From: an uncultured Pseudomonadales bacterium
GTDB lineage: Bacteria; Patescibacteriota; Microgenomatia; UBA1400; MFAQ01
Assembly: GCA_964513845.1 (NCBI GenBank)
Contig: CAZENT010000006.1
Coordinates: forward strand, 1 to 57,483
DNA: 57,483 nt
Reading direction: 5' to 3'
The position numbers were made by a program, and so were the translations under genes. This document shows, one piece after another, positions 2,936 to 26,510 of the stretch. The first letter of the stretch is position 1. Each line of letters begins with the position of its first letter. The notes under the pieces are model-generated. The model did not search any database. It worked only from the letters and a program-made list of their open reading frames with translations, and was not told where the DNA came from.

Positions 2936-3280
2936 ATGAAAAACTTAAACAGTGAAGAAACTCTTTGGGTAATCCTCCCCATACTCCTTGTGGTAGGTCT
3001 TCTTATTGCCAGTATCATTATTCTCCCCCAAACCCAAACAGAGGTTCGCAGTAAGGCTTCCGAGCCCACCACCACCCCCACCAAAGTCGTTTTGCCAACC
3101 CCTTCCGTTTCAGAACGTCCTGAAATCATCTGTACCACCCTTTACTCTCCCGTTTGTAGTCAAGCAGGTGTTACCTATTCCAGTGAGTGTGAAGCCAACA
3201 AGGCCGGTGTCACTTCTTTCACCCAAGGTGCCTGCTCTGCGGTTCAAACCAAACCCCAACCCCTCCCCCTCGCCAACTAA
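2936..3280 (+). CDS. Membrane-anchored Kazal-type domain protein
   Basis: N-terminal TM, P/T linker, CTTLYSPVC...TYSSECEA...C Kazal pattern. Confidence 0.8.
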   Translation: MKNLNSEETLWVILPILLVVGLLIASIIILPQTQTEVRSKASEPTTTPTKVVLPTPSVSERPEIICTTLYSPVCSQAGVTYSSECEANKAGVTSFTQGACSAVQTKPQPLPLAN

Positions 3281-6227: not shown

Positions 6228-7697
6228 ATGTCCCAAAACAAACTTCGTTTTTGGAGCATGGTACTTTTCCTGCTCCTTTGTTGTCTTTTTTCATTCACTT
6301 CAACGGTTTTAGCTGATGACGGCACTAACCCCACACAATGTCAGTTTCAGCCTTCCCCTAGTGATCGCAGTTCCACCATGGACTCCATTTTTTTGATTGG
6401 AGCAGGTGGCGAAAATCTAACTTGGGACAATAGCTATCTTGGCCTGCATCGCTGGACGTTCCAACAATGGCCAGGTGTCGACTATACTGTTCCAACCACG
6501 ATTGCGTTCACCTCAGGTGGTACGATTTCTTGGCTTGGAATCGATGGTGCGGGTGGAGGCTACTCCATCATCATCGACGGAGCAAATGAGTGCCAAGGCT
6601 GGCGACAGTTCATTGGCCATCTCGCTTATGATCCCAGTTCTCGCTATGTCATTGGCCAAGAAATTGGACCCAGTGAAATAGTCGGTGAGCCTGGTTGTTC
6701 CGGCTTTGAAGCATACTGCACTCCCAACGGAGGCTCGATTCCTCCACACAATCACACCACCCTAGGTTACCAAAGTAATGTTTTTAGTTTTTCCGATGGT
6801 ACCCAAGCCGTAGGTGTTCGTGGATACTGGTGGATTCATCCGGCCAGAGTCGAAGGGACAGCCGTCAGTTCTCCTGGCACAGAGAAGCAAATTAGCTTCG
6901 ATGCATCCCTGGAGTACTCGGCAGAGTTCACAATTCCCGAAGTCAGTCAAAGCATAAATCCTGATTTTCTGGATAATCTCTTGATTGGCCTCACCCCTTA
7001 CAAAACTCACCTCAAAGTCGCGGCTTCCTTGTTGGGGCTTGCCTTCATTGGCTTGTTCTTCATCTCCAAAGACTTTCGAGGGCTGACCATCGCCGGACTT
7101 GTAATCGCGGTGATCTTGGCTGGAGGTATTTTCTATCTCCGCCAATCTATCGCCAAGTCCCCCGTGTTTTCTCCTCCTCGTGAGGCTATTTTTGTGGCTG
7201 AGGTTCCGGAAAAAACCGTCACTTTTGACATCAGTGAAACCACTTCACTTTCCTCCTCGGCCAACACCGTAGACGCAGACTGTCAGCTTCCAGTTTCGTA
7301 CCCCGATACAGTTTTGCGTTACTGTGATTTGATTGAGAAGTATGCCGCCGAGCAAGGTGTTGATCCTCAATTAATTGCGGCCGTTATGGTTCAGGAGTCC
7401 CATGGTAACCCCGATGCTTACAGCAGCGCGGGTGCCGTTGGTCTTCTGCAAGTAATGCCGCACGATGGTCTTGCTGCCAATTTTATGTGCGCCAATGGCC
7501 CCTGCTTCGCCAATCGCCCCTCTATGGACGAGCTTTACGAAGAGGAGTTTAACGTCAGCTACGGTACTCGTATGCTGGCTGGTTTGATCAACAAGTACGA
7601 CGGCTCGGAACGTGAAGCTTTGTTTCACTATGGTCCGGCCGGGGTTGGCTATTACTATGCCGACATCGTATTGGCCATCAAGGCCAAGAATCAATAA
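6228..7697 (+). CDS. Secreted/membrane protein: M23-like peptidase domain, two TMs, lytic transglycosylase (SLT) domain
   Basis: Signal peptide; H..GVD, GHL and PHNH (HxH) M23-like motifs; C-terminal LIAAVMVQESHGNPDAYSSAGAVGLLQVMP SLT motif; SD AAGGAGG. Confidence 0.75.
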   Translation: MSQNKLRFWSMVLFLLLCCLFSFTSTVLADDGTNPTQCQFQPSPSDRSSTMDSIFLIGAGGENLTWDNSYLGLHRWTFQQWPGVDYTVPTTIAFTSGGTISWLGIDGAGGGYSIIIDGANECQGWRQFIGHLAYDPSSRYVIGQEIGPSEIVGEPGCSGFEAYCTPNGGSIPPHNHTTLGYQSNVFSFSDGTQAVGVRGYWWIHPARVEGTAVSSPGTEKQISFDASLEYSAEFTIPEVSQSINPDFLDNLLIGLTPYKTHLKVAASLLGLAFIGLFFISKDFRGLTIAGLVIAVILAGGIFYLRQSIAKSPVFSPPREAIFVAEVPEKTVTFDISETTSLSSSANTVDADCQLPVSYPDTVLRYCDLIEKYAAEQGVDPQLIAAVMVQESHGNPDAYSSAGAVGLLQVMPHDGLAANFMCANGPCFANRPSMDELYEEEFNVSYGTRMLAGLINKYDGSEREALFHYGPAGVGYYYADIVLAIKAKNQ

Positions 7698-7706
7698 AAA
7701 GGAGTT

Positions 7707-8567
7707 ATGATGAGTAAAATTACCCCTCTACCTCCGGGTATTAGCCCGGAGCTGCAAGCGCAGTACGCCGAGGCCAATGAATTATTAGCCAAATGCAAAG
7801 CCATAAAACGTCGCATGAATACAAAAAAGCTTGTTAAGACTCTTTTAATTCTCTGTGCGTTTGCCGGCCTCTTTATTGGTGCCTATGTAATTTATGGTCA
7901 AAGAACGAGCATCATTGCCCAGGGCAAAGGCTATCTCCAGTCCATCCTCCCCACGCCCAAGCCCACGGCTACTCAGCCCGCCCCTCAAGCCGTCAATACA
8001 GATTGTCAAGATCTAAAGATGACTCTAGACGGCACCAAGCTCAACATCAGCGTTCCCAAGATTGGACAGTGCTACAAGATTGCCCCAGAGTTTCAGAGTG
8101 CCTGGTCGCAGACTTTTGCCAATGCTGACAATCGATCTGCCTTCGCCAAACAAATTGGCGGAGACCAGACCTTCGTAGAAACAGCCATCGCCAACAGTCT
8201 TTCTGCTTGGCAGCTAAATCTACGTGAACCTGAAGCTGCTGAAGTGCCTGTGCCAACGGCCGTTCCAACCGCAACCATGACTCCAGAACCAACCTCAGTT
8301 CCAGTCTACGATAAAAGGGAAATTCCCTTGAGTTTCCCCGATTTGATCAAGGTCATGCGTGAGCTGGGCATTGCGAAAGTGGTTGGCAACGACAACACTC
8401 GTTACAACCAAAACTCTTGGGCACTTTACTACACGGCTGAGGATTATCTAATTCTCAACACGTACAATCTGCCCAAAGAATGTGCTAGTGCTACCTCTCT
8501 CAAAGTCGCTCTTGAACCCGATGAGGGTTACATGAGCCTCGAAGATGGCTGGCTTTACTGCAAATAA
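7707..8567 (+). CDS. Hypothetical single-TM protein with P/T-rich linkers
   Basis: 286-aa ORF, SD AAGGAG, TM near residues 45-63. Confidence 0.75.
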   Translation: MMSKITPLPPGISPELQAQYAEANELLAKCKAIKRRMNTKKLVKTLLILCAFAGLFIGAYVIYGQRTSIIAQGKGYLQSILPTPKPTATQPAPQAVNTDCQDLKMTLDGTKLNISVPKIGQCYKIAPEFQSAWSQTFANADNRSAFAKQIGGDQTFVETAIANSLSAWQLNLREPEAAEVPVPTAVPTATMTPEPTSVPVYDKREIPLSFPDLIKVMRELGIAKVVGNDNTRYNQNSWALYYTAEDYLILNTYNLPKECASATSLKVALEPDEGYMSLEDGWLYCK

Positions 8568-16795: not shown

Positions 16796-17044
16796 ATGGA
16801 CAACCAAGACCAAACCCCAATTGTAAAATCAACCAAGAAAGATCTTGATCTAAACAATCTCCCTGACCTTTTGACCGTTTCCGAAGTAGCCACGATTCTC
16901 CGTGTTTCCACCCTTACCATCAAGCGTTGGGGCAAACGCGGCAAACTTCCGGCTATTCGTATCAACTCTCGAGGTGATCGCAGATACAAAAAAGAGTCAG
17001 TCCTCTGGATGCTCGGCATCAATCCCACTCAATCCAACTCCTAA
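16796..17044 (+). CDS. Excisionase-like/MerR-like HTH (HTH_17) DNA-binding protein
   Basis: LLTVSEVATILRVSTLTIKRWGKRGKLPAIRINSRGDRRY. Confidence 0.85.
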   Translation: MDNQDQTPIVKSTKKDLDLNNLPDLLTVSEVATILRVSTLTIKRWGKRGKLPAIRINSRGDRRYKKESVLWMLGINPTQSNS

Positions 17045-17177
17045 GGGTACAAAAAAGACCCCGATTCCTCGAAGCCTTTCCTTGTCATCCCCGACCTGAT
17101 CGGGGATCTATATCAATAATACAAATTCGTCATTTCGAGTTTCGTACTCGAACCGTGGCAATCTCACATTTATTTCC

Positions 17178-17241
17178 TTTGATCTGCCCACGCATAGATC
17201 TTACCCTGTCCAAGTAATAAGTTCTATATGGGCAGGTCAAA
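17178..17241. repeat. 64-bp terminal hairpin B (second copy 19593-19656)
   Basis: TTTGATCTGCCCA...TGGGCAGGTCAAA long imperfect hairpin; the two copies are nearly identical and each sits at the distal end of a cassette array. Confidence 0.85.
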
Positions 17242-17329
17242 AGAAATGACCTGTATTCTTTGGATACCCAAAACGGAATGATAAAAGAAATCTTTGGGAG
17301 GGTGTAGACACACCCTCCCAAAACAAGAA

Positions 17330-17890
17330 CTACCGCATCCGACAACTCACTACGGCATCTTCGAAAGATACGAAAGGCTCTTCGTAGTGAGAAGCATGGC
17401 GGCGAAGTGCCGTCTGCGCTTCTTCCCACGATGGTGCTGATCCCTTGCGGACAAAAACATAGGTTTCCCAATCGGGATTTCCATTTGTCCACAGCGCCAT
17501 TACCACAACATTCTCACCTTCGGGGAGATGGTACACTCCATCATCCCCCTGGCAACGGGGTGGATAGGTGAAACTTTCTTCACCTTCCAAATACTTGATT
17601 TTCGTTAATGGCCAGCCCAGCGTTCGGGCAAGCCGCCGAACGGGATTTGTGTCGTTTTCAATTAACGGCATCCGCAACACCTTATTCGGAGTGATGCGAT
17701 AAGCGCGCCCGGCCACAATTGGCCATACCCCCATGACCATTCCCGTGGAGTTGTACTCCACAATGGTGCCCTTGGTTGAAAATTCAGGATCAGGATACAC
17801 TATCATCCTTGTCCCTGATAAGCCCCGACGAATTACTTTTGATCCGTCAGACACCAATTCATCAAAGGTTTTGTCCAAGAAAATAGCCAT
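17330..17890 (-). CDS. Cassette 1 hypothetical protein (186 aa)
   Basis: ORF with SD AAGGAGG inside the leader hairpin; stop abuts the trailer. Confidence 0.75.
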   Translation of the reverse strand: MAIFLDKTFDELVSDGSKVIRRGLSGTRMIVYPDPEFSTKGTIVEYNSTGMVMGVWPIVAGRAYRITPNKVLRMPLIENDTNPVRRLARTLGWPLTKIKYLEGEESFTYPPRCQGDDGVYHLPEGENVVVMALWTNGNPDWETYVFVRKGSAPSWEEAQTALRRHASHYEEPFVSFEDAVVSCRMR

Positions 17891-18190
17891 TTTTGTCCTC
17901 CTTATGGACAGCTCCGCCGTTAAACGACGGAGAAGAAGAAAATAAGATTCTGCTCAAGCTTGCGCCAAAGCAGTTTTGGGCATACCAGCCCGTTTTGAGT
18001 ATCCAAACTCATATATTGTCATTGCGATCCGCCTTTGGTGGAGAAGCAATCCCCGACATGCGGAGGTTACCTCGACCTTTCGGCTTCACAATGGACAAAT
18101 ATATATTTTAAATCTGGATACCCAAAACAGAATGATAAAGAAATGATGTGGGGGGGGGGTAAAAAAACGCCCCCCCCCAAAAAAAATCTC

Positions 18191-18343
18191 TCACAAGTTC
18201 TTTTTTCTCTTGATAACAATCAAGAGAAATGCAAAAAAGAAACCTGCAACGATCAATCCGAGCTTTACGAGCTCGGATTCAACGATAAACGTGCCCAACA
18301 AACAGGCACATCCTACCACAAATACAATTTTAAACCAGATCAT
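18191..18343 (-). CDS. Cassette 2 small two-TM protein (50 aa)
   Basis: MIWFKIVFVVGCACLLGTFIVESELVKLGLIVAGFFFAFLLIVIKRKKNL; ATG 18343 at the same distance from the leader SD as other cassettes. Confidence 0.65.
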   Translation of the reverse strand: MIWFKIVFVVGCACLLGTFIVESELVKLGLIVAGFFFAFLLIVIKRKKNL

Positions 18344-18569
18344 TATTGCCCTCCTTTGGGGCCACTCCGCCGTGAATGCGACGGAGATTAAATCAACACT
18401 CTGCTCCAGCAATTGCCTTTGGCAGTTTGGGGCATATCAGCCCGTTTTGAGTATCCAAATTATTAAATTTCAAAGTTCAAACTTTCTTCGAATCGCACCA
18501 CCGCCAACAAATTTCACCTCACCAAAAAAATCGCCAAACTAGCGACAAAAAATATAGGGAAATGGAAAT

Positions 18570-18699
18570 GAATTACTGTTTGGACAGGTAATTCGGTAAC
18601 ACCTCTTGGAAGTGGTGCGACTCGAATTTGAAAGTTCTTGGCAATCGATTGATTGTCAACTATAGCCGATAGTATATCACAATATTATAGGTTTGTCAA
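18570..18699 (-). promoter_or_regulatory. Array header A: promoter TTGACA-17-TATACT, 53-bp conserved leader and GAATTAC hairpin (second copy 22807-22976)
   Basis: 18607-18659 versus 22884-22936 differ at 4 of 53 positions; hairpin GAATTAC...TTGGACAG-GTAATTC present in both. Confidence 0.75.
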
Positions 18700-18710
18700 C
18701 TTGAGGGATT

Positions 18711-19331
18711 TTATCCAATCTCAACCAACTTGACGTTTTGGACAATGACGCTTTTTACAGTCAACCAGCTTACGTTTTTGTGCATTTTTGGGCTAGGCTG
18801 ATCCTCCGCGTCATCAAAATACACCAACGATTTTAAAACATGAAGCAAATTGTATTCCTGATCACTGTATTTTTTCTTCATAAATCCAAAAATATCAGGC
18901 AAAGAAAACTCCTCCATAATGAAAAAAAGGTCAATGAAGTCTTTCTTAGATCCTCTTGCTGAAATAGTAATTAATTTTGTACAAGCAACATCCTGAATCG
19001 AAGATATTTTTATCCCATCCAGTATCTGTGGTTCTTCAAGCAATCTATACGGGTAATAGAGAAACTGTAATTTCACATTGTCCACAAAACAATTGAGAGT
19101 TCCAGAGTCCATTGACGCTTCTGTCAGATGAAGTTCTTTTTTCAATATTTGTAGTAAGTTTTCCGGTTCAAACTCTTCCTGGGTAAAAAAATCTAAATCT
19201 ACTGATTCACGATGACCCAAATGAAGCGCCAAGGCCGTTCCTCCAGACAAGTAAAAATTTCCAGGCAAACCAATCTTTGTCAGTTTGTCAAATAGAGCTT
19301 TTGTTCCCGGTGCAAGTGTTTCTGTGTGCAT
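18711..19331 (-). CDS. AbiEii/AbiGii-family nucleotidyltransferase toxin
   Basis: FYLSGGTALALHLGHRESVDLDFF and KKDFIDLFFI motifs. Confidence 0.9.
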   Translation of the reverse strand: MHTETLAPGTKALFDKLTKIGLPGNFYLSGGTALALHLGHRESVDLDFFTQEEFEPENLLQILKKELHLTEASMDSGTLNCFVDNVKLQFLYYPYRLLEEPQILDGIKISSIQDVACTKLITISARGSKKDFIDLFFIMEEFSLPDIFGFMKKKYSDQEYNLLHVLKSLVYFDDAEDQPSPKMHKNVSWLTVKSVIVQNVKLVEIG

Positions 19332-19332
19332 A

Positions 19333-19554
19333 TTAAAAGTATAACCGCCAAAAATTACGCGATTTCGGACTCATTTTTTTTGATAAATTTTTTTTCAGTT
19401 CCTGTTTAGATACTTTTCCGGTAAGCCACTTCACAGCCCTTGCATTTCCCTTTTCCAAAATAGTATTGGAAATATAATTTTTATGTTTTGCCATACTCAA
19501 ATCTCTCAAATCATCGCCCCAAAAATACTTAGAGATAAACCTAGGTATTATCAT
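19333..19554 (-). CDS. Small cognate antitoxin (DUF6922-like)
   Basis: YFWGDD...YISNTILEKG...VKWL...SRNFWRLYF; 1 bp upstream of the AbiEii gene. Confidence 0.75.
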   Translation of the reverse strand: MIIPRFISKYFWGDDLRDLSMAKHKNYISNTILEKGNARAVKWLTGKVSKQELKKNLSKKMSPKSRNFWRLYF

Positions 19555-19773
19555 TACCTCTATTTTACCTCAAAACAAGACTAACAGCTTCCTTTGATCT
19601 GCCCACGCATAGACCTTACCCTGTCCAAGTAATAAGTTCTATATGGGCAGGTCAAAAGAAACGACCTGTTTTTTATGGATACCCAAAACGGAATGATAAA
19701 TATGTAGGGAGAGAGGAAGCTAGACAGGCAACCTCTCTCCCACAAGACAATCAGGGGGGGGTGATGGAAAAAT

Positions 19774-20085
19774 CTACCACGAGCCTCTTGATGTGCCGTG
19801 TGCCGGCACCGGCTCGGTGTGAGCCAGCACCGCACAACACTTTTTGCTGGGGACCTCAATGGTCGTCCAGCTCTGACTCTCAATCATTCCTTCCGGAACG
19901 ACCGAGTCCCACGAGTATCGGACGATAACTTGCCCGTCCGATACGGAAACACAGTGGAAATCTCGGGAAACTTCCCATTTCCCGAATTTTCTGGCGAGAT
20001 CAATCTCGCCCATCGCCACCATCTCCGCCATTTTGACGGCGGTGGCACCAAATACGAACTCGATCATTTCAACAAATTCATTCAT
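19774..20085 (-). CDS. Cassette 3 hypothetical protein (103 aa)
   Basis: ATG directly after the leader SD hairpin. Confidence 0.65.
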   Translation of the reverse strand: MNEFVEMIEFVFGATAVKMAEMVAMGEIDLARKFGKWEVSRDFHCVSVSDGQVIVRYSWDSVVPEGMIESQSWTTIEVPSKKCCAVLAHTEPVPAHGTSRGSW

Positions 20086-20308
20086 CTTTGCCCTCCTTTA
20101 GGGCCACTCCGCCGTGAATGCGACGGAGAAATAAATCAAACTTCTGCCTCAGGCAATTGCCTTAGCAGGTAATTAACACGGGTGATAAGTATCAACCCGT
20201 TTTGAGTATCCAAACTCATATATATTGTTAATCTGGATACCCAAAACGGAATGATAAAAAAATGTAGGGAGAGAGGAAGCCAGACAGGCAACCTCTCTCC
20301 CACAAGAC

Positions 20309-20542
20309 TTACTTCCAGGTCCACCCGGGCTCAATGGCCCTGATGGCCTGGATGGCCTCATCTTCAATTTCCTTCTTGGTTTCCCAAGAAGGAGACGCAC
20401 CACGCATTCTCACTATGGTGTGAGTTGTGTCTGGACCATCGTGGATAATTGTGTGAAAATACGATAAGCCCAATTCTTGGGCCTTGTTGACTATTTGTTC
20501 GATGGGGTGATTTTCCCCACACCTTGCTGTAAAAATAATCAC
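20309..20542 (-). CDS. Cassette 4 hypothetical protein (77 aa)
   Basis: GTG 20542 after AAAGGAGG; stop abuts the trailer GTCTTGTG. Confidence 0.65.
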   Translation of the reverse strand: MIIFTARCGENHPIEQIVNKAQELGLSYFHTIIHDGPDTTHTIVRMRGASPSWETKKEIEDEAIQAIRAIEPGWTWK

Positions 20543-20750
20543 TGTGTCCTCCTTTGGACAGCTCCGCCGTGGAACGACGGAGAAAAAAGAAAAAGATTCT
20601 GCCTCGGCAATTGCCAAAGCAGTTTTGGGCATACCAGCCCGTTTTGAGTATCCAAACTCATATATATTTTTAATCTGGATACCCAAAACGGAATGATAAA
20701 AAATGTGAGGAGGGGGAAATGTCAAGACAGCCAATCCCCCTCCCACAAGA

Positions 20751-21227
20751 CTAAGAGTACTTTATTTTTGCCTCTTCCATCCTTCGGAAGAGTTCCCTAA
20801 CCGCATCAGCCTGGTTCGGGTTTAACCCAATAAATACCTGCTCTTTTAATATTTCAAAAAAGAACAAGCTTTCTTTTTTTGTTGGCCATCCATTCTCGCC
20901 GATATCGACGAGTAGTTCCAACACTGAGACAACGGGGATCGTTGTCATGAATGGATTAATTAGGCATCCACGCTCTAGATCAAAGCCGTTGAGCCCTAGA
21001 TATTTCCACCCATCTGCAACTTTCCAAAGTTTTTCGCCCAGAATTTTCTCTGGGTTGTCCCTATGCCAATAAAAAGTTGGCAACTCAGGATCCATTGGGT
21101 CTGTGAAGACCCCAAGAGCATACTCGCCCTTATATTGGGCGATGCGGAACCTAGGAAAAACACTTTCCCTCAGTTCTGGGGGCAAACAATCAAATACACC
21201 CCTTTTCAAAAATTTTATTTTCATCAT
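20751..21227 (-). CDS. Cassette 5 hypothetical protein (158 aa)
   Basis: ATG after the leader SD; stop abuts the trailer. Confidence 0.75.
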   Translation of the reverse strand: MMKIKFLKRGVFDCLPPELRESVFPRFRIAQYKGEYALGVFTDPMDPELPTFYWHRDNPEKILGEKLWKVADGWKYLGLNGFDLERGCLINPFMTTIPVVSVLELLVDIGENGWPTKKESLFFFEILKEQVFIGLNPNQADAVRELFRRMEEAKIKYS

Positions 21228-21553
21228 TGCCCTCCTTTAGGGCCACTCCGCCGTGAAATCGGACGGAGAAAAAGATAAAACTTCTGCCTCAGGCAATTGC
21301 CTTTGGCAGTTTTGGGCATACCAGCCCGTTTTGAGTATCCAAACTCATATATATTTTTAATCTGGATACCCAAAACGGAATGATAAAAAATGTTGGAAGG
21401 GGGAAATGACAAGACTGCCAATCCCCCTTCCACAAGACTGATTGTTATTTTCCACTCATTTGAATGAAAAAATTACAGGTTATCAACCTAACTTTTTTAA
21501 AGAGAAGTCACCTCTCTAGCGCCAATCCTCTTTTTACCCGCCTTGCGGCGAGT

Positions 21554-22294
21554 TTAATCGAAAAGATTGGCTTCCTCCTCAAGCCGTGCTTTCACGGACT
21601 TGAGGTTGGACAAATCATACCGGCATTCACTTTCAGCCGGTAAAGACGACTGGTCAACAATCGACCCGTCCATAATACTCACCTCGGGGGCTTCCGCCTC
21701 CGGGATGACGAACATGTCCTGCCGGTGTTCATCCGGCATGTCGGACGAGTAAACCTCCTCGTCCAAATAGGCCGCCGCTTCCCAGTAGGACAAGCCTACT
21801 TGGAAAGCGCTCAGCCGATCGCTTTGTCCCTCGAGGACATAAGCGAAGTGATTTTTGAACTCCACGAGGAGCTTGTGCCCCTCGCGTGCTGCACTTACGG
21901 CCCCCCAATTCGACCGGCAGCCAACTCGCTGCTTTTCGATGGTCGCTCCCGCCCTGAAGATCAGGACGGACCAGGGGGTCTTGACAGGGCGCAGTGCCCC
22001 GGTTCCTTGCATCCAGGGGAAACCCTGAATGCCGATTATCCAGGTGCGCTCAGCCAAGGACGGGTGCACGCGTTCGTACACCTCGACAAACCCTTCGGAG
22101 GACTGGGCCCGGTAGCCCTTCAGGGGGATGATGATGTCATACCCTCTATTGAACAGCCTTTCACCAAAATGGGCCAGAGGGCCCAGGTCTGCGCCGAAGC
22201 GCAGAACGACACCCTGTCCAGCGACTCTCGTCGCCGAAACAGAGTATACCCGCAGTTCGCGGGTGAATGTGTCGATCAAAAGATGCTTTGCCAT
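21554..22294 (-). CDS. Cassette 6 hypothetical protein (246 aa, visibly GC-rich)
   Basis: ATG after the leader SD; acidic C-terminus; own small terminator hairpin near 21535-21553. Confidence 0.75.
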   Translation of the reverse strand: MAKHLLIDTFTRELRVYSVSATRVAGQGVVLRFGADLGPLAHFGERLFNRGYDIIIPLKGYRAQSSEGFVEVYERVHPSLAERTWIIGIQGFPWMQGTGALRPVKTPWSVLIFRAGATIEKQRVGCRSNWGAVSAAREGHKLLVEFKNHFAYVLEGQSDRLSAFQVGLSYWEAAAYLDEEVYSSDMPDEHRQDMFVIPEAEAPEVSIMDGSIVDQSSLPAESECRYDLSNLKSVKARLEEEANLFD

Positions 22295-22429
22295 TTTAAT
22301 TGCCCTCCTTTAGGGCCACTCCGCCGTGAATGCGACGGAGAGATAGAAATCAAACTCCTGCCTCGAGCAAACGCCTTTGGCAGGGAAACTAACACGGGTG
22401 ATACATATCAACCCGTTTTGAGTATCCAG

Positions 22430-22790
22430 AATAACCTCTTCCTCATAAGCATTCCCGAGTAATCTCGGTCTCCGTTAACAGCAGTAAACCATGTTTACCT
22501 TGCGGATTTTACGAGGAAGATTATTAATGTTAAGGTCCCAGCATTCTTCGGGTCGCGCCACTACCTTCCTCGGAAAACCGAGAAAGCTAGTGTGTCTTGT
22601 AGCTTTTATCCCCGATTTACTCGTCGTATCCCCGTCAACCGAGGGCGATCTATAAAGAAGTAGATAAAAGTACTGGTTCTGCTCATCCTCACTACCGAAG
22701 CTATCTCGGCTAGAAGACTCACAGAGTTAATTAAACGTCTTATGCCGAAGCAGCGTTTAACTCCAGACTGCACACAGGAAACATATGAAA
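22430..22790 (-). ncRNA. Putative large structured non-coding RNA between header A and cassette 6
   Basis: No ORF in the track; many nested hairpins including UUCG- and GCAA-capped stems; lies downstream of the 22948-22976 promoter. Confidence 0.4.
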
Positions 22791-23142
22791 ATTGGACAAG
22801 TTTTGTGAATTACTTTTTGGACAGGTAATTCAAGTACACCTATGGAAATTTTTAACGCATTCGCGTTTGGACAGTTTCCTTATTGGCAGTGGTGCGACTC
22901 GAATTTGAATGTTCTTGGCAATCGTCTGATTGTCAATGATAAGCAACAGTATAACACAATGTTATGGGTTTGTCAAGTAGTGTTTACAACTTGGCTCTGG
23001 GTTCGTGTTACCTAAATGTGCTTATTACAGGTATATATTACCACATCTTATAGTATTTGTCAATCCCTATTAACATCCACAAACACATCGCTATCCGTCA
23101 ACATCCCTTGACACTCCTCTAGTTTCCCTATACCATCTATAT

Positions 23143-23949
23143 ATGCCCACTCCAAACAATTTACAAAACCTCGGTCTTTCCACAGATCAAACCGCCATCT
23201 ACCTCACCCTTCTCAACTCAGGACCACAGTCCGCCATCTCCCTAGCCAAGCTTTCCGGCATCAAACGCACCTACATCTACCATCTCTGTAAAGAGCTCGA
23301 AAAAGAAGGACACATCAAGCTCACCCAGAAAGGTCGCACTACCTACTTCTCCGCTCAATCACCAGATCTTCTCCTTGCCAAAGCCCAAGAGAAAAAAGCT
23401 CAAGCCGAAACCGCTCTGCTCACACTCCAGTCAATTCTCCCAGAGCTCCAGTCCAAGTACCGCCTCACCGACATCAAGCCTGTTGTGAGTTACTTCGAAG
23501 GTCTTGAGGGTATCAAAAAGATGTACCAAGACATCATCAAAACTGGCCAAGATGATCTTCTTTTTCGCTCAATTCACGATGAAAGCAATCCTCTGGCAGC
23601 CACGGTCCTCTACAAACACATGGAGGAGCGCACCAAAGCCGGTATCCGCACCAAGGCCATAACCCCTTTTGTCGAGGTAGGTATTCAAAACTACCTCCAT
23701 CACGATAAAGAGCACCTCTTTGAACGCCATTTCACCCAAAACCCTAAATATTTGTTCCCCTGTCAGATCATTGTTTACGGTACCAAAGTGGCTATTACCG
23801 ATTTCCAAACACTCATTACCACCACACTCGACAACCTACTCATTAGCCAAACATTTAGCCAGCTCTTTGACATTCTCTGGGAAGCCACTCAAAACGAACA
23901 CGACGACCTCATCAGAAAAATTAGCTCAAACCCTCCAAAGACTAATTAA
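23143..23949 (+). CDS. TrmB-family transcriptional regulator
   Basis: N-terminal wHTH (LGLSTDQTAIYLTLL...LAKLSGIKRTYIY), VSYFEGLEGIK, C-terminal PLD-like domain; promoter TTGACA-17-TACCAT 6 nt before ATG. Confidence 0.9.
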   Translation: MPTPNNLQNLGLSTDQTAIYLTLLNSGPQSAISLAKLSGIKRTYIYHLCKELEKEGHIKLTQKGRTTYFSAQSPDLLLAKAQEKKAQAETALLTLQSILPELQSKYRLTDIKPVVSYFEGLEGIKKMYQDIIKTGQDDLLFRSIHDESNPLAATVLYKHMEERTKAGIRTKAITPFVEVGIQNYLHHDKEHLFERHFTQNPKYLFPCQIIVYGTKVAITDFQTLITTTLDNLLISQTFSQLFDILWEATQNEHDDLIRKISSNPPKTN

Positions 23950-26510
23950 AAATAGCCCTCGTATTTTGGATCTTTTGCTTGTCGCTTATGCTTTTTCGTG
24001 CTCATTTTAAACTTCATTAAATACTCTCCAAACTTTTCGGCAATCTGCTCGAAGTTCTCCATTGTTGCTTCACTAAACGAACCCTCATTGTGACCTCCCT
24101 CCGACTTTTCTGCCAAACTTAAGACTCTACCCACCCGAAGGGTTTGATACTCACCAGATACAAAAAACGACTCTCCGGTGCCCAGATCGAGTGATACCTT
24201 AGGTTTTTCCGCCAAACCACGTTCCTTACTGTACGCACTCCTATCAAAAGCCACCCTCACCTCCTGACCACCCCCCAACGGAGGAACAACTTTAAAATTA
24301 ATTCTCGCTTCCGCCGCACTTCCATCTCCGTTTACACAAGCCTTTGGTCGAATAGAAACTACCACTTTTGATTCAGTTTTTTTGTCTTTAAAAATTCTAA
24401 TTACCATCGCCTTTTCGTCTTTGATATTTTCATCTTCAATCATTCCGGCTTGAAAACCGACATCCATTAGCTCAAACTGATCCTCTTCTCGCAAGCCTTC
24501 CAAAACCCCCAAAGCGTATGTTACGGCATCCATAGATTCCAACAACTCATCCAGCTTCACTTCTCCACCAGACCCCTCATCAATCACTATAGCCGCTTTA
24601 AAGTACTCACAACATTTTCTGATTAGCGCCTCATGTGCCTCCGCAAAAAAAGTGTCTCCAGTTCCCAAATCAACACCATCAAACGACTTTCTCCATTCAT
24701 AAGCCTTGTTTGTTATCTGAAAGAAATGTTTTAGCACTTTCTCTTTCTGTTCGCGGGAGGAGTTTGCAGACTCAAAATATTTTAGTATATCTTCTCCTGT
24801 TCCTCCATAATCAGCCGCCAAAAATACTTTCAACCCCAGTTCGCCAAAATTTCTAGCTATCTCTTTCAGTTGTGTTTTTTTGACGTCGTCTCCTTGCTCA
24901 TAACTCAAAACAAACCACCCTTGTTCATATAGTTCCAATGAATTCAGGCTAATATCTGTTTCGGTATAGATCTGATCAAATAGTTTTCCATAGCTCGATA
25001 AAAACACCTCAGTCATTAGCTCTCTCGACTGTCTTTCTTGAGCAGTTTCGTCAGCCTTAGGCAAGAAAATATCTTTCGAAGAAATACTGCGCACTACTGC
25101 CTTAACCCGTTCTTGATCTGTCTCTAAATTCAAATTAAAAGCACCCAACAACTTTCCTCCGTCTCCAAAAACTCCTATTCGTCCATGATTATCAATACGC
25201 TTCACGTATGAGTTACCTGCTCTAAATAGCTTGACCAAAAACTCAGGATCATCCTCTTTTATTAGTTCGTAGATCTTATCAAAATAGCTAACTCCATCTT
25301 CACTTGTGATAGCAATTTTTTCCATCTCCAAATCATATAATATTCCGGCCGACATTCGTCTGGATAGAATGTCTTCACTTTTTAAGTTATTCAGCAATAT
25401 CGGCAAAGAGTTCGCTAGTCCAAGATAGTCAAATAGCTTAACGTATTCCCCCAGTGATCCTTCTGGCCAGGTTTTTAGCTGATCTCCTGCAATGGCCGCG
25501 AGTTCAATTTTCTCACCATCGGTCCAGTCATTTACATGCATGACGGCACCAATCAAAGCATAGTGGACAAATCTAAATGGATTATCATCCCATCTCAAAC
25601 TATTTTCGTCAAAATAGTAATAACTATTTACCTCATCTTCACTTTCCTGTATCTCTTCGTGTGGTTCTTTGTCAATAACTGAATCGTCATCAGTATCAGG
25701 ATCAGCAATCGAACCATCGGGGTTGTATTGAAGATCAAAAAACTTATCATCTTCTTTTCTATAGCGACATACTTCATTCACTTCTTTAATTCGTTCAATT
25801 CTTTCCCGACAAAACCCCTCCATCAGTTCCTTTGCTTTCTTCGCACCCTCGACTCTACCGATACTTATGAGAGAAATTAATATCTCATTGGTGAACGGAT
25901 TTTCTTCAAAATATGAATTATATGTTTCTTCTGCGTATTCAGAAAGGATTTCTATCACCGCGCCTCTTTCCTCCTTTTTGTCCCTGTAATATTTCTCCAT
26001 TCTATTTAGAGTAGGCAATAGCGCTTCGTTTACCATATATTTAAACGAAATATCACCATCATCATCATGATAATAACTATTACTCTTTTCCCTTCTAAGT
26101 TCTTCCTCATCACAAACATGAGTAGCTTCTTTAAGCATATCTATCCATTCACCAGGACTTATGTTGTCACTTGCTTCCAGTGTTTCTGTTTTTTTCAAGA
26201 ATTTATCTACCGCACCACGAGAAGCTTTGTCCCATTTAATATAATCTTCTCTTTGATGGGTTTTATATCCCCCATAAGGATAATCCTCAAAGTCAAACGA
26301 TCTCCATCCATTATCCGCCCTATACAAACTTCTCCATTCAGTATTGACCTGTTCACGCCATTCTTCAGATTTTCTATGCCGCTCATCAATTTCTCTCTGT
26401 ACCTCCACAGAAAGGGCATCTTGTTCTTCATTAGCTTCACCGAAGATATCATCGCCTTTAAAATCAACTGGCATGTATTCATCATAAACTATCCAGGAAT
26501 TTCTAGCCAC
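23946..26510 (-). CDS. Large acidic hypothetical protein (854 aa)
   Basis: Long uninterrupted ORF; no recognisable domain. Confidence 0.8.
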   Translation of the reverse strand: MARNSWIVYDEYMPVDFKGDDIFGEANEEQDALSVEVQREIDERHRKSEEWREQVNTEWRSLYRADNGWRSFDFEDYPYGGYKTHQREDYIKWDKASRGAVDKFLKKTETLEASDNISPGEWIDMLKEATHVCDEEELRREKSNSYYHDDDGDISFKYMVNEALLPTLNRMEKYYRDKKEERGAVIEILSEYAEETYNSYFEENPFTNEILISLISIGRVEGAKKAKELMEGFCRERIERIKEVNEVCRYRKEDDKFFDLQYNPDGSIADPDTDDDSVIDKEPHEEIQESEDEVNSYYYFDENSLRWDDNPFRFVHYALIGAVMHVNDWTDGEKIELAAIAGDQLKTWPEGSLGEYVKLFDYLGLANSLPILLNNLKSEDILSRRMSAGILYDLEMEKIAITSEDGVSYFDKIYELIKEDDPEFLVKLFRAGNSYVKRIDNHGRIGVFGDGGKLLGAFNLNLETDQERVKAVVRSISSKDIFLPKADETAQERQSRELMTEVFLSSYGKLFDQIYTETDISLNSLELYEQGWFVLSYEQGDDVKKTQLKEIARNFGELGLKVFLAADYGGTGEDILKYFESANSSREQKEKVLKHFFQITNKAYEWRKSFDGVDLGTGDTFFAEAHEALIRKCCEYFKAAIVIDEGSGGEVKLDELLESMDAVTYALGVLEGLREEDQFELMDVGFQAGMIEDENIKDEKAMVIRIFKDKKTESKVVVSIRPKACVNGDGSAAEARINFKVVPPLGGGQEVRVAFDRSAYSKERGLAEKPKVSLDLGTGESFFVSGEYQTLRVGRVLSLAEKSEGGHNEGSFSEATMENFEQIAEKFGEYLMKFKMSTKKHKRQAKDPKYEGYF

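Follow-up and report, generated by a model that had tools for sequence, protein, structure and literature searches.

What are the six structured leaders that precede unrelated genes on the minus strand of this DNA, and do they control those genes? An initial annotation of the window (the whole stretch of 57,483 nucleotides analysed here) had described them as probable translational switches whose covarying hairpins sequester the Shine-Dalgarno sequence (SD). Our analysis shows that this reading missed a larger object. The leader is one piece of a cassette-boundary module, and the leaders belong to a repeated frame that packs unrelated orphan genes as swappable cassettes, in an array that is integron-like, yet without an integrase or integron-type sites.

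A repeated frame around orphan genes

Six leader copies of ∼110 to 130 nt lie on the minus strand, as the initial annotation had placed them. Each forms the 3′ part (the downstream third) of an inter-cassette module of ∼230 to 260 nt, which runs from a trailer (GUCUUGU, a terminator-like hairpin, and a U-tract) through an inverted-repeat junction of 16 to 26 bp to the hairpins H1, H2, sometimes H3, and H4 with the SD. In order, a cassette comprises a 5′ arm (UGGAUACUCAAAACGG), H1, H2, an optional H3, H4 with the SD, the ORF, the trailer, and a 3′ arm repeating the 5′ arm in inverted form. Cassettes A to D (array 1) and E and F (array 2) are arranged head to tail, with the minus strand as coding strand, and both arrays have their own strong promoter, structured 5′ RNA domain, and terminal element; strong promoters occur at the array heads only, and the junctions have none. 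Every cassette, first and last included, carries a full 5′/3′ arm pair, the arrays open with a lone 5′ arm and close with a lone 3′ arm, and cassettes start with TG and finish with CA. All cargo ORFs are mutually unrelated and without known families; the cassette A protein has one homolog in 5.8 × 10^9 proteins. The features are as follows (L numbers denote related loci).

23143-23949, plus strand: divergent TrmB-like winged-helix regulator adjoining the array head
23035-23063, minus: second promoter, upstream of the array-1 promoter
22948-22976, minus: array-1 promoter TTGACA-17-TATACT with TG (11/12 match; conserved in L124, L125, and L127-L135)
22915-22936, minus: operator-like palindrome TTGACAATC-AGAC-GATTGCCAA, directly 3′ of the promoter, read from the sequence
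22547-22903, minus: structured 5′ RNA domain (conserved in 10 loci; no Rfam match at E ≤ 5)
22437-22520, minus: M2, three-way-junction RNA motif abutting the first cassette upstream (alifold, 7 loci)
22295-22428, minus: cassette A 5′ arm (22413-22428), leader H1-H4, and SD
21554-22294, minus: cassette A ORF, 246 aa, ORFan of no family
21363-21438, minus: cassette A trailer (GUCUUGU, terminator-like hairpin, U-tract) and 3′ arm (21363-21378)
21342-21362, minus: A/B spacer, 21 nt, AT-rich, loop of the junction hairpin
21228-21341, minus: cassette B 5′ arm and leader
20676-21227, minus: cassette B ORF (20751-21227, 158 aa), trailer, and 3′ arm (20676-20691)
20543-20654, minus: cassette C 5′ arm and leader, H4 allele UGUCC/GGACA
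20234-20542, minus: cassette C ORF (20309-20542, 77 aa, GTG start), trailer, and 3′ arm (20234-20249)
20086-20212, minus: cassette D 5′ arm and leader, alternate H1
19676-20085, minus: cassette D ORF (19774-20085, 103 aa), trailer, and 3′ arm (19676-19691)
19589-19675, minus: array-1 terminal element (repeat D6), long hairpin, conserved 3′ of the last cassette in L124, L125, L127, and L131
18711-19554, minus: AbiEii toxin/DUF6922 antitoxin-like pair, between both arrays
18458-18699, minus: array-2 promoter (18671-18699) and shortened 5′ domain (repeats D7, D13, and I5)
18115-18457, minus: cassette E (leader 18344-18457, ORF 18191-18343, 3′ arm 18115-18130)
18016-18099, minus: MITE-like insert of ∼84 nt with its own terminal inverted repeats, in the E/F spacer
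17261-18005, minus: cassette F (leader 17891-18005, ORF 17330-17890 of 186 aa, trailer, 3′ arm 17261-17276)
17174-17260, minus: array-2 terminal element, second D6 copy
16796-17044, plus: small HTH_17/MerR-like protein at the distal array flank (syntenic in L124/L126 and L131)

The operator-like palindrome is kept in all related loci as TTGACAA(T/C)-N4-6-(A/G)TTG(C/T)CAA. The array-1 5′ domain has a 19-bp long-range closing helix (UUCGAGUCGCACCACUGCC/GGUAGUGGCGCGACCCGAA) and three CUGUCC hairpin loops, and the D6 apical loop UUGGACAGGGUAA is complementary to the CCUGUCCAA loops of the 5′ domain; the array-2 domain shares this closing helix, has a single CUGUCC loop, and lacks M2. M2 has no Rfam match, and 10 positions of its 12-bp closing helix vary with all cells paired (alifold, 7 loci). 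Contigs from metatranscriptome RNA runs cover 22399-22554 and 22617-22835. The A/B spacer sequence is repeated at 20655-20675 and 20213-20233, and cassette E encodes a hydrophobic protein of 50 aa followed by a G9/C10 trailer hairpin. The ∼84-nt MITE-like insert also occurs in L136, with compensated changes, and loose ends show further genomic copies of it. TrmB homologs adjoin arrays in L123/125, L127-L135, and L137. The coding strand is the G-rich one throughout the window.

Leader hairpins and the Shine-Dalgarno sequence

Each leader folds independently into H1 to H4 as described, with minimum free energies of −40 to −50 kcal/mol (z of −2.2 to −4.3) that were equalled by 0/200 shuffles for five of the six copies. 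The hairpin sequences given for them are also correct: H1 pairs GGGC/GCCC or, in A and D, ACGGGU.GAUA/UAUCACCCGU; H2 pairs CUGCC/GGCAG around GGCAAUUGCC; H3 pairs CUCCGUCG/CGGCGGAG with variable loops; and H4 is GCCCU-AAAGG-AGGGC or UGUCC-AAAGGA-GGACA. H2 and H4 do contain compensated pairs, the fifth H2 pair forming a series of C-G, U.G (copy C), and U-A (copy F). As for covariation, pairing is retained, but the signal is thin inside the window, where none of the eight H3 pairs varies and a single H4 pair is changed on both sides (CG in four, UA in three; score reached by 13/500 column shuffles). The two H4 alleles move as blocks, the L136 leader being an A/C-type mosaic.

The recurrence of H1, H2, and H4 in a wider leader set supports the view that the hairpins are selected structures. 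H1 is found in 20 of 21 distinct leaders from at least six genomes (shuffles, mean 5.5 and maximum 10), with compensated changes among GGGC/GCCC, GGGUU/AACCC, and GAGU/ACUC; nearly every leader has a hairpin at the H2 position, unrelated in sequence from one to the next; and an H4-type hairpin occurs in 10/10 leader variants of the window's clade, on at least five different stems (GCCCU/AGGGC, GUCCU/AGGAC, UGUCC/GGACA, UUUUCCU/AGGAAAA, and CCCU/AGGG). H4 is absent from the more distant sister clade (7/7 leaders), and H3 is optional across the family. The strand asymmetry of the leaders does not exceed the ORF background (−4.0 versus −4.4 kcal per 100 nt); either DNA strand could form these folds just as well.

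That H4 sequesters the SD and keeps the cargo silent was, in turn, overstated. H4 pairs only the 3′ half of the SD, that is, AGG plus 2 to 4 nt, and leaves AAAGG in the loop of a weak stem (−3.9 to −8.3 kcal/mol), and the SD-core pairing probability of the cassettes matches that of 18 other SD-bearing genes in the window (0.37 versus 0.385; Mann-Whitney P = 0.55). The leaders match no Rfam family, riboswitches included, and contain neither an alternative conformer nor a ligand-binding fold. Because the SD is half paired, its pairing is ordinary, and H4 is missing in the distant clade, a silencing switch is only partly supported.

Invariant arms and cassette turnover

The arm motif CCGTTTTGAGTATCCA is present in 12 copies within 17.2 to 22.5 kb and elsewhere in the 57 kb as one weak match with three mismatches (13 matches versus 0.63 expected; ≥13 in 0/100 shuffles). 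The arms are found in the arrays only, in a single orientation relative to the ORFs, and these 16 nt are near-invariant across genomes whose neighbouring proteins share 50 to 60% identity. Such invariance exceeds the need of a purely structural RNA role and hints at either a protein with sequence specificity or a recent horizontal spread. Facing arms are separated by 21 to 116 nt, in spacers that also hold other small MITE-like inserts, and their pairing is specific to the coding strand: non-Watson-Crick positions of the junction stems comprise 38 G.U and 1 A.C, indicating stems built for coding-strand pairing, probably as RNA, and the junctions fold at −32 to −68 kcal/mol as coding-strand RNA versus −21 to −51 for the opposite strand. 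The junction order is GTTTT...AAAAC, not RYYYAAC...GTTRRRY, and no attC R″/R′ cores were found in the junctions. Trailer hairpins (10 to 17 bp, some flagged as terminator-like) differ in sequence and always lie 3′ of (A)GUCUU(A/G)U and 5′ of the U-tract.

The platform is syntenic in at least six related metagenomic genomes, with different ORFan cargo in each; its hosts are several uncultivated wastewater and groundwater bacteria, which carry it at the same chromosomal spot. L122-L137 have it beside TrmB homologs only 50 to 60% identical, with syntenic flanks. Cassettes differ even between strains that are 94 to 98% identical: behind one same 5′ region, the window has cassette A, L137 a P-loop/Csx3 cassette, and X4 cassette B. 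All inter-strain rearrangement joints map to the invariant arms, and the cassette A deletion joint requires a crossover inside ∼17 to 20 nt of identity, more in keeping with site-specific recombination than with RecA-type exchange. Homologous exchange within frames is indicated by mosaic leaders and trailers, with L123 and L125 sharing an ORF behind different leader halves, X7 combining a D-like ORF with a B-type trailer, and L136 an A-like leader with a C/F-type H4. No integrase, transposase, or HUH Pfam domain was found in ORFs of ≥100 aa in the 57 kb, nor such a domain among the called genes of related loci; no match to Rfam, phage, or plasmid was obtained; no target-site duplications were seen; and the window contains no RNase III gene.

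Alternative explanations

We regard it as possible, if doubtful, that the arms and junction palindrome are attC-analogous recombination sites, perhaps folded as coding-strand single-stranded DNA on the lagging-strand template, that serve a recombinase or transposase whose gene lies elsewhere in the genome; leader and trailer would then be conserved mainly as travellers with the sites, and an additional RNA role would be compatible. Such sites would agree with the rearrangement joints at the arms, the invariance of the arms across genomes, the TG...CA ends, the full arm pairs of first and last cassettes, and a TA pair in the array, as in chromosomal integrons (PMC8876359). G.T being the least destabilising DNA mismatch, the 38:1 asymmetry also fits single-stranded DNA of the coding strand, whose G-richness extends over the whole window. 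They agree less well with the lack of recombinase domains in the 57 kb and in the called genes of related loci, with junctions that have variable spacers, no attC cores, and no target-site duplications, and with mosaic frames that indicate homologous exchange. An ordinary operon with repeated intergenic insertions of a Correia/ERIC-like MITE, that is, two 26-bp terminal inverted repeats flanking an AT-rich core, with the hairpins as by-products, seems to us very improbable. It would explain a pair of inverted repeats of 16 to 26 bp flanking 21 nt of AT-rich core, their folding into a long RNA hairpin as in RNase III-binding Correia elements (PMC2649163), and the further small MITE-like inserts in spacers, but not the restriction of the arms to arrays in one orientation, the lone arms at array ends, a conserved block of ∼250 nt that extends beyond the palindrome to the SD and a terminator-like hairpin, or unrelated ORFans that vary between strains.

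It is also unlikely that the leader is a translational switch (riboswitch, thermosensor, or protein-operated) whose H4 hides the SD, leaving the cargo genes unexpressed until a signal arrives. The H4 design is retained with different stems in the window's clade, one pair is compensated between orthologous leaders, the anti-SD-like CUCC and SD-like GGAG of H3 could compete with the real SD, and the GGA in or beside a short hairpin loop presumably resembles CsrA/RsmA-type sites. Yet the paired part is short (a stem of −4 to −8 kcal/mol), the SD is as accessible as in other genes, predictions give no alternative fold, any CUCC:SD pairing would be much less stable than H3, no Rfam family matches, and the sister clade lacks H4; H3, moreover, is optional.

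Relation to known systems

Compared to sedentary chromosomal integrons and CALINs (attC clusters lacking an integrase), the platform has the same single strong promoter heading the array, the same co-oriented promoterless cassettes, mostly single ORFans, the same imperfect palindromes, near-identical within a genome, the same cassette differences among close strains, and a TA module in the array. Integron junction hairpins also occur in mRNA and can affect downstream translation (PMC8876359, PMC2727003), a trait that the platform would share. In contrast, there is no IntI gene in the 57 kb or related loci and no RYYYAAC...GTTRRRY core; stems are near-perfect, whereas attC has an unpaired central spacer and extrahelical bases; the conserved unit is far larger (∼250 nt), with a terminator-like hairpin and structured SD leader; and terminal cassettes have full arm pairs in an array with a structured 5′ RNA domain and terminal element.

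PeSLs, composite promoter/terminator stem-loop cassettes flanking ORFs in hyperplastic regions of T4-like phages (PMC2839356, PMC4122927), likewise place short conserved regulatory sequences around unrelated novel ORFs and appear, as here, to drive single-ORF insertion, deletion, or replacement between close relatives through inter-repeat recombination. They combine phage early promoters with a stem-loop, whereas the cassettes described here have no promoter of their own, and have inverted-repeat arms, multi-hairpin leaders, and an array-level platform on a bacterial chromosome. Correia elements of Neisseria and ERIC-type MITEs share 26-bp-class inverted repeats around a short core, a position between cotranscribed genes, and long RNA hairpins; when they are transcribed within operons, RNase III can bind or cleave the hairpins, altering the stability of flanking messages (PMC2649163). 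Correia and ERIC-type elements, however, are scattered as hundreds of copies that face either way and have TA duplications, whereas the repeats here stay within arrays, keep one orientation, and belong to a larger frame. With SD-occluding leader hairpins and translational attenuators, the leaders share a local hairpin over the ribosome-binding site and covariation that preserves pairing; they differ in pairing only the 3′ half of the SD, in low stability, and in having no leader peptide, alternative structure, or aptamer.

A proposed standardised mRNA expression frame

The explanation we favour, with about as much confidence as reserve, is that the module serves as a standard frame for mRNA expression, processing, and insulation in a new integron-like cassette platform. 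The frame would work in the mRNA around unrelated promoterless ORFs. One strong operator-bearing promoter would drive each array, with transcription running through the large structured 5′ RNA domain and, in array 1, the three-way-junction motif to the terminal hairpin. The trailer hairpin may end or stabilise the upstream message, and the 3′ arm and the 5′ arm of the next cassette would form a double-stranded RNA hairpin of 16 to 26 bp, in which we see, conjecturally, a likely RNase III-type processing site or an insulating site. H1 and the outer junction stem would be mutually exclusive; once the stem is opened, the GGG(Y) at its foot could refold as H1 at the new 5′ end. H2 and H3 would make the leader self-contained, and H4, a weak local hairpin that takes up the 3′ half of the SD (a perfect AAGGAGG), may damp translation and make it independent of the inserted ORF. 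Cassette gain, loss, and reshuffling, finally, may rely on the same conserved frames, either as stretches of homology or as sites.

RESULTS

Architecture of the cassette arrays

All genes between 17.2 and 22.5 kb lie on the minus strand, on which the region contains six identically built units, cassettes A to F, grouped into array 1 (A to D) and array 2 (E and F). Every unit has the same five components.

Components of a cassette, in 5' to 3' order
5' arm, minus strand: 16 nt, TGGATACTCAAAACGG
Leader, minus strand: 95-120 nt, with a perfect AAGGAGG Shine-Dalgarno (SD) sequence at its end
ORF, minus strand: one per unit, downstream of the leader
Trailer, minus strand: GTCTTGT, a GC-rich hairpin, and a T-run (TTTTTTATCATT)
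3' arm, minus strand: CCGTTTTGGGTATCCA, the inverted repeat of the 5' arm

Twelve copies of the arm motif lie in the arrays, and one weak match lies elsewhere in the 57 kb; these 13 matches compare with 0.63 expected, and no shuffle reached 13. Between neighboring units lies an AT-rich spacer of 21 nt, and the E|F spacer holds an additional MITE-like element of ∼84 nt. A near-consensus promoter (TTGACA-17-TATACT with TG) stands at the head of each array, and these two were the top promoter-like sites in the 6.2-kb region scanned. Promoter scans of this region and of relatives found no promoter-like site at the junctions (3' arm, spacer, and next 5' arm) and so gave no support to promoters of their own in the junction spacers. 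Downstream of each promoter come an operator-like palindrome and then a conserved 5' region; an 87-nt conserved element (the terminal element, repeat D6) closes each array, and an AbiEii/DUF6922 toxin-antitoxin pair separates array 1 from array 2. As in an integron, promoterless co-oriented cassettes of strain-variable content stand behind one promoter. The SD is perfect in all cassettes, and many housekeeping genes of the window have none.

Some cassettes have long 3' untranslated regions (window 21450-21553, minus strand; trailers of the related loci L128 and L131) with extra modules common to several genomes, namely, ACUCGCC-GNNN-GGCGAG and AGGYUGAUAACCU. The trailer hairpin of cassette E (18140-18190, minus strand) is a G9...C10 homopolymer stem, possibly a slippage-prone tract. 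GC skew on the plus strand is negative throughout the window, 1-57483 (-0.1 to -0.4), whatever the gene orientation.

Related loci and cargo

The same platform was found in six metagenome contigs by searching with a 23-nt pattern that joins the arm to H1, the first of the leader hairpins (H1 to H4, 5' to 3'), and ten further contigs were reached through homologs of the divergent TrmB-like neighbor. Common to these relatives are the promoter, the operator palindrome, a 5' domain, arm-bounded cassettes, the terminal element, and a terminator, the shared 5' domain being closed by a 19-bp long-range helix and bearing three CUGUCC hairpin loops. L131 (rplJ-rplL, array, TrmB, WecG, MreB, PEGA) is syntenic with the window, and the flanks of L124 correspond to window 16.8-17.0 kb and 26.5-26.9 kb. 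The arms are nearly invariant, while the TrmB proteins share only 50-60% identity. An assembly artifact is excluded by the recurrence of this architecture in independent assemblies from several studies.

The cargo ORFs, none of which is related to another, have no Pfam family; 10 cargo proteins had no PHROGs or PADLOC match, the cassette A protein has a single homolog among 5.8 billion proteins, and look-up found no exact-sequence record of the A and F proteins. The first cassette of a sister strain (L137 94-1038, minus strand) contains two genes, whose products are a P-loop-like protein of 189 aa and a Csx3-domain protein of 103 aa, and this Csx3 cassette hints that some cargo is defense related. 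No viral contig matched arm plus H3, BLAST of the inter-cassette module gave no match in phage and plasmid collections, and a full-text search of the literature found no description of such arrays.

Conservation of the leader hairpins

The initial annotation had delimited the leaders and their hairpins correctly: its interval, 17891-22428, has the last base of leader F and the first base of leader A as its exact end points, and H1 to H4 are formed by every leader folded singly (MFE -40 to -50 kcal/mol, z -2.2 to -4.3), at about -36 kcal per 100 nt compared with -24 ± 9.5 in same-strand 115-nt ORF windows. These structures come from folding each sequence by itself and from a structure specified by hand, as alignment-based folding (RNAalifold, MAFFT) mis-paired H1 because of a 13-nt indel. 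The further claim that pairing is kept while sequence varies holds at compensated positions of H2 and H4, but the closeness of the copies leaves little covariation within the window. All 8 pairs of H3 are invariant among the window copies; H4 shows one pair with both bases changed (C-G in four sequences, U-A in three) plus a one-register shift, with a covariation score matched by 13 of 500 column shuffles, and the fifth pair of H2 forms the series C-G, U.G, U-A. The two H4 alleles move as blocks, as seen in L136, where the A-like orthologous leader is of A type but carries the C/F-type H4, and they therefore do not represent independent compensatory events.

Across the family, H1 begins at the GGG that closes the arm and is found in 20 of 21 distinct leaders, whereas 200 shuffles gave 5.5 on average and never more than 10; its compensated variants are GGGC/GCCC, GGGUU/AACCC, GGGUUG/CAACUC, and GAGU/ACUC. 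H2 lies a few nucleotides 3' of H1 and has a wholly different sequence in each cassette, and H3, a CUCC...GGAG hairpin, is common yet optional. An H4-type hairpin, whose 5' strand complements AGG and the next 2-4 nt, is present in 10/10 leader variants of the window's clade (window, L124, L127, L136, L137, and one RNA-run contig) at -3.9 to -8.3 kcal/mol, with stems that include GCCCU/AGGGC, GUCCU/AGGAC, UGUCC/GGACA, UUUUCCU/AGGAAAA, and CCCU/AGGG. None of the seven leaders of the other clade has it, and the SD lies there in an unstructured A-rich stretch. The leader hairpins are thus under selection; H1 and H2 are family-wide, and H4 is an addition specific to the window's clade.

The proposal that H4 sequesters the SD, as a translational switch that keeps cargo genes silent, is only partly supported. 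H4 does pair AGG plus a few bases, but AAAGG stays in the loop, and cassette SDs are paired no more than controls: the partition function assigns the SD core a pairing probability of 0.37 in the six cassettes, and the other SD-bearing genes of the window (18 genes) have 0.385 (p=0.55). At a ribosome-binding site, a stem with a stability of -6 to -8 kcal/mol is expected to damp initiation rather than abolish it. Two exclusive conformers, one of them occluding the SD and start codon, as a switch would have, did not emerge from folding, since MFE and centroid structures agree on H1 to H4 and no alternative conformer is predicted; an Rfam scan matched no riboswitch or other model to the leader.

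Junction stems and trailers

At each junction, the 3' arm and the next cassette's 5' arm form a hairpin with a 16-bp core and the spacer as its loop; with its extensions (UAUCAUU... / ...GGCUGGUA), the stem reaches ∼26 bp. Over 12 junctions from 7 loci, the non-Watson-Crick positions of the stem, read on the coding strand, are 38 G.U versus 1 A.C, and folding energies are -32 to -68 kcal/mol for the coding strand and -21 to -51 kcal/mol for its complement. The G.U positions differ among lineages and therefore record several independent events. This pattern shows that selection has favored pairing within the coding strand, either in RNA form or as single-stranded DNA of that strand. The coding strand is the G-rich strand across the whole window, which could contribute some mutational bias, but not one of 38:1.

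H1 and the outer junction stem are mutually exclusive because both use the same GGG(Y). The junction double-stranded RNA is a predicted stem of 16-26 bp with G.U pairs, to be read against an RNase III criterion of ∼20 bp or more together with observed cleavage. Trailer stems measure 10-17 bp, with a U-run that starts 0-8 nt past the stem; some were flagged as terminator-like and others not.

Turnover of cassettes and frames

Logan contigs from related wastewater and bioreactor strains carry differing cassettes behind the same 5' region. The first cassette is A in the window, B in the sequencing run X4, and the P-loop/Csx3 unit in L137, which is 95.6% identical to the window over 22406-23502. 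In X4, A has been lost through the joint 21341->22432, which falls precisely at the arm; the joint 17249->20674 is among those that place a B or D-like cassette last, before the terminal element, and the joint 22408->17986, confirmed in L136, sets an A-like cassette behind an E|F-type spacer. All rearrangement joints fall within arms. L133 is 94-98% identical to the window over >9 kb of flanks, and its contig ends at the first arm. The frames are mosaic as well, with one ORF carrying unlike leader halves in L123 and L125, a D-like ORF with a B-type trailer in run X7, and a hybrid leader in L136, so that exchange occurs within frames too. Adjoining the array, window 23520-26500 is a second variable spot, where the C-terminal part of the TrmB-like gene and an 854-aa ORF are swapped for a methyltransferase gene in L133 and L137, between flanks of 94-98% identity.

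Additional RNA modules and repeats

The array heads and ends, and some leaders and spacers, hold further elements.

RNA modules and small repeats in the window and its relatives
Window 22437-22520, minus strand: M2, an ∼85-nt three-way-junction RNA directly upstream of the first cassette of array 1
Window 22547-22903, minus strand: 5' domain, a structured RNA whose 19-bp closing helix contains G.U pairs
Window 18487-18626: shortened copy of the 5' domain
Window 19589-19675 and 17174-17260: terminal elements, apical loop UUGGACAGGGUAA
Window near 22860, 22815, and 22795: 5'-domain hairpin loops CCUGUCCAA
L123 ∼1790-1850; L125 ∼3010-3075; L128; L129; L131 ∼7690-7750: leader motif beginning GGCCCGUAGUGGCCACUGCGCUCCUGUCCUG
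Window 18016-18099 and 17100-17170; L125 4800-5010; L131 7905-7985: small MITE- or REP-like hairpin repeats
L131 4798-4882, minus strand: c-di-GMP-II riboswitch

M2 is kept in 7 loci, where 10 of its 12 closing-helix pairs vary with pairing retained and the junction nucleotides AAAAUCCGC, GUUAACGGAGAC, and GGGUAUGCUU are invariant; it has no Rfam match and is a candidate for a new riboswitch or protein-binding motif. The 5' domain, 330-650 nt long in relatives, matches no known RNA family, and the few low-depth metatranscriptome contigs that match it do not match the cassettes. Read by eye, the apical loop of the terminal element complements the 5'-domain hairpin loops, and the trailer motif GUCUU(A/G)U complements a conserved AUAAGAC of the 5' domain; these complementarities could be due to RNA pairing at long range or to protein sites in common.

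A conserved motif, GGCCCGUAGUGGCCACUGCGCUCCUGUCCUG-AAAU-GCGGGGGCGAAGUGGYC, recurs in some 200-nt leaders of relatives and has no Rfam match. The small hairpin repeats, which end in ...CGCAATGAC(A/G), sit in junction spacers and downstream of arrays, and Logan loose ends indicate more genomic copies. At gathering thresholds, Rfam 15 matched tRNAs alone in the window; at E<=5, only sub-threshold matches to miRNA and sRNA models appeared, none relevant to the leader, junction, trailer, 5' domain, or M2, and in the relatives nothing was matched at these five elements. With 55.8 bits, the riboswitch of L131 exceeds the gathering threshold; it precedes a 310-aa gene, just past the array's terminal element.

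DISCUSSION

The best-supported account of the leaders, which we hold with moderate confidence, is that they belong to an expression frame of standard design, into which ORFs are plugged. In such a frame, the trailer hairpin and U-tract would terminate or stabilize the upstream message, and the junction double-stranded RNA would serve as a processing or insulating site, for which there are precedents in Correia elements, which bind RNase III (PMC2649163), and in the attC hairpins of integron mRNAs, which impede ribosomes (PMC8876359). Once the junction stem is opened, H1 could refold at the 5' end, H2 and H3 would keep the leader self-contained, and H4 would set a damped, cargo-independent rate of initiation. 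The conserved frames may also act as a substrate for cassette gain, loss, and shuffling, as the PeSL motifs of T4-like phages do (PMC2839356, PMC4122927).

The main rival, compatible with an expression frame, holds that the invariant arms are DNA sites of an unlinked recombinase. Arm invariance speaks for it, as do the joints, which require crossover within ∼17-20 nt; no integrase, transposase, or HUH domain was detected by Pfam in window ORFs of at least 100 aa, nor a recombinase among the called genes of L128 to L137, and we consider this reading possible but not probable. Whereas attC sites contain extrahelical bases and leave their central spacer unpaired, the stems at the junctions are near-perfect, and a regular-expression search for RYYYAAC...GTTRRRY core pairs gave a single chance-level match, off the junctions and at the background density of the window. 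MITEs of the Correia/ERIC type are dispersed in both orientations with target-site duplications, whereas the arms occur in arrays only and in one orientation over the 57 kb and ∼100 kb of relatives covered, and no target-site duplications flank them. An invertible element is rejected because all ∼25 cassettes seen have one orientation and the 21-nt spacer is too short. In PeSL cassettes, a promoter and stem-loop flank each variable ORF; the junctions here lack a promoter, so the likeness is functional only.

We tentatively raise a broader reading, which is more speculative than the frame itself: that the arrays represent an undescribed class of chromosomal gene-cassette platform. It would not depend on integron integrase or attC, and it would belong to uncultivated bacteria that, by their gene content, are probably CPR-like. 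In it, arbitrary ORFs would be packaged between invariant inverted arms and RNA modules (a 5' platform RNA with CUGUCC loops, a complementary terminal loop, GUCUU motifs, and junction double-stranded RNA). Dedicated machinery might then recognize the arms for capture and exchange, perhaps in single strands that have folded, or perhaps with the help of an RNA component.

To our knowledge, integrons are the sole well-understood system for stockpiling and shuffling gene cassettes that lack promoters, and we know of no explanation for the birth of their cassettes. The array described here does the job of an integron, with a fixed chromosomal site, one promoter, ORFan cargo, and strain turnover, without the two defining integron parts. 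Each of its ORFs sits in a complete standard frame, from 5' untranslated region and SD to terminator, and this frame has visibly recombined separately from the cargo. If confirmed, the platform would offer a natural example of insulated expression parts and make the 5' domain, M2, and the terminal element available for study as new structured RNA motifs. It would also show that poorly known bacteria have a second, convergent way to achieve genome plasticity through cassettes.
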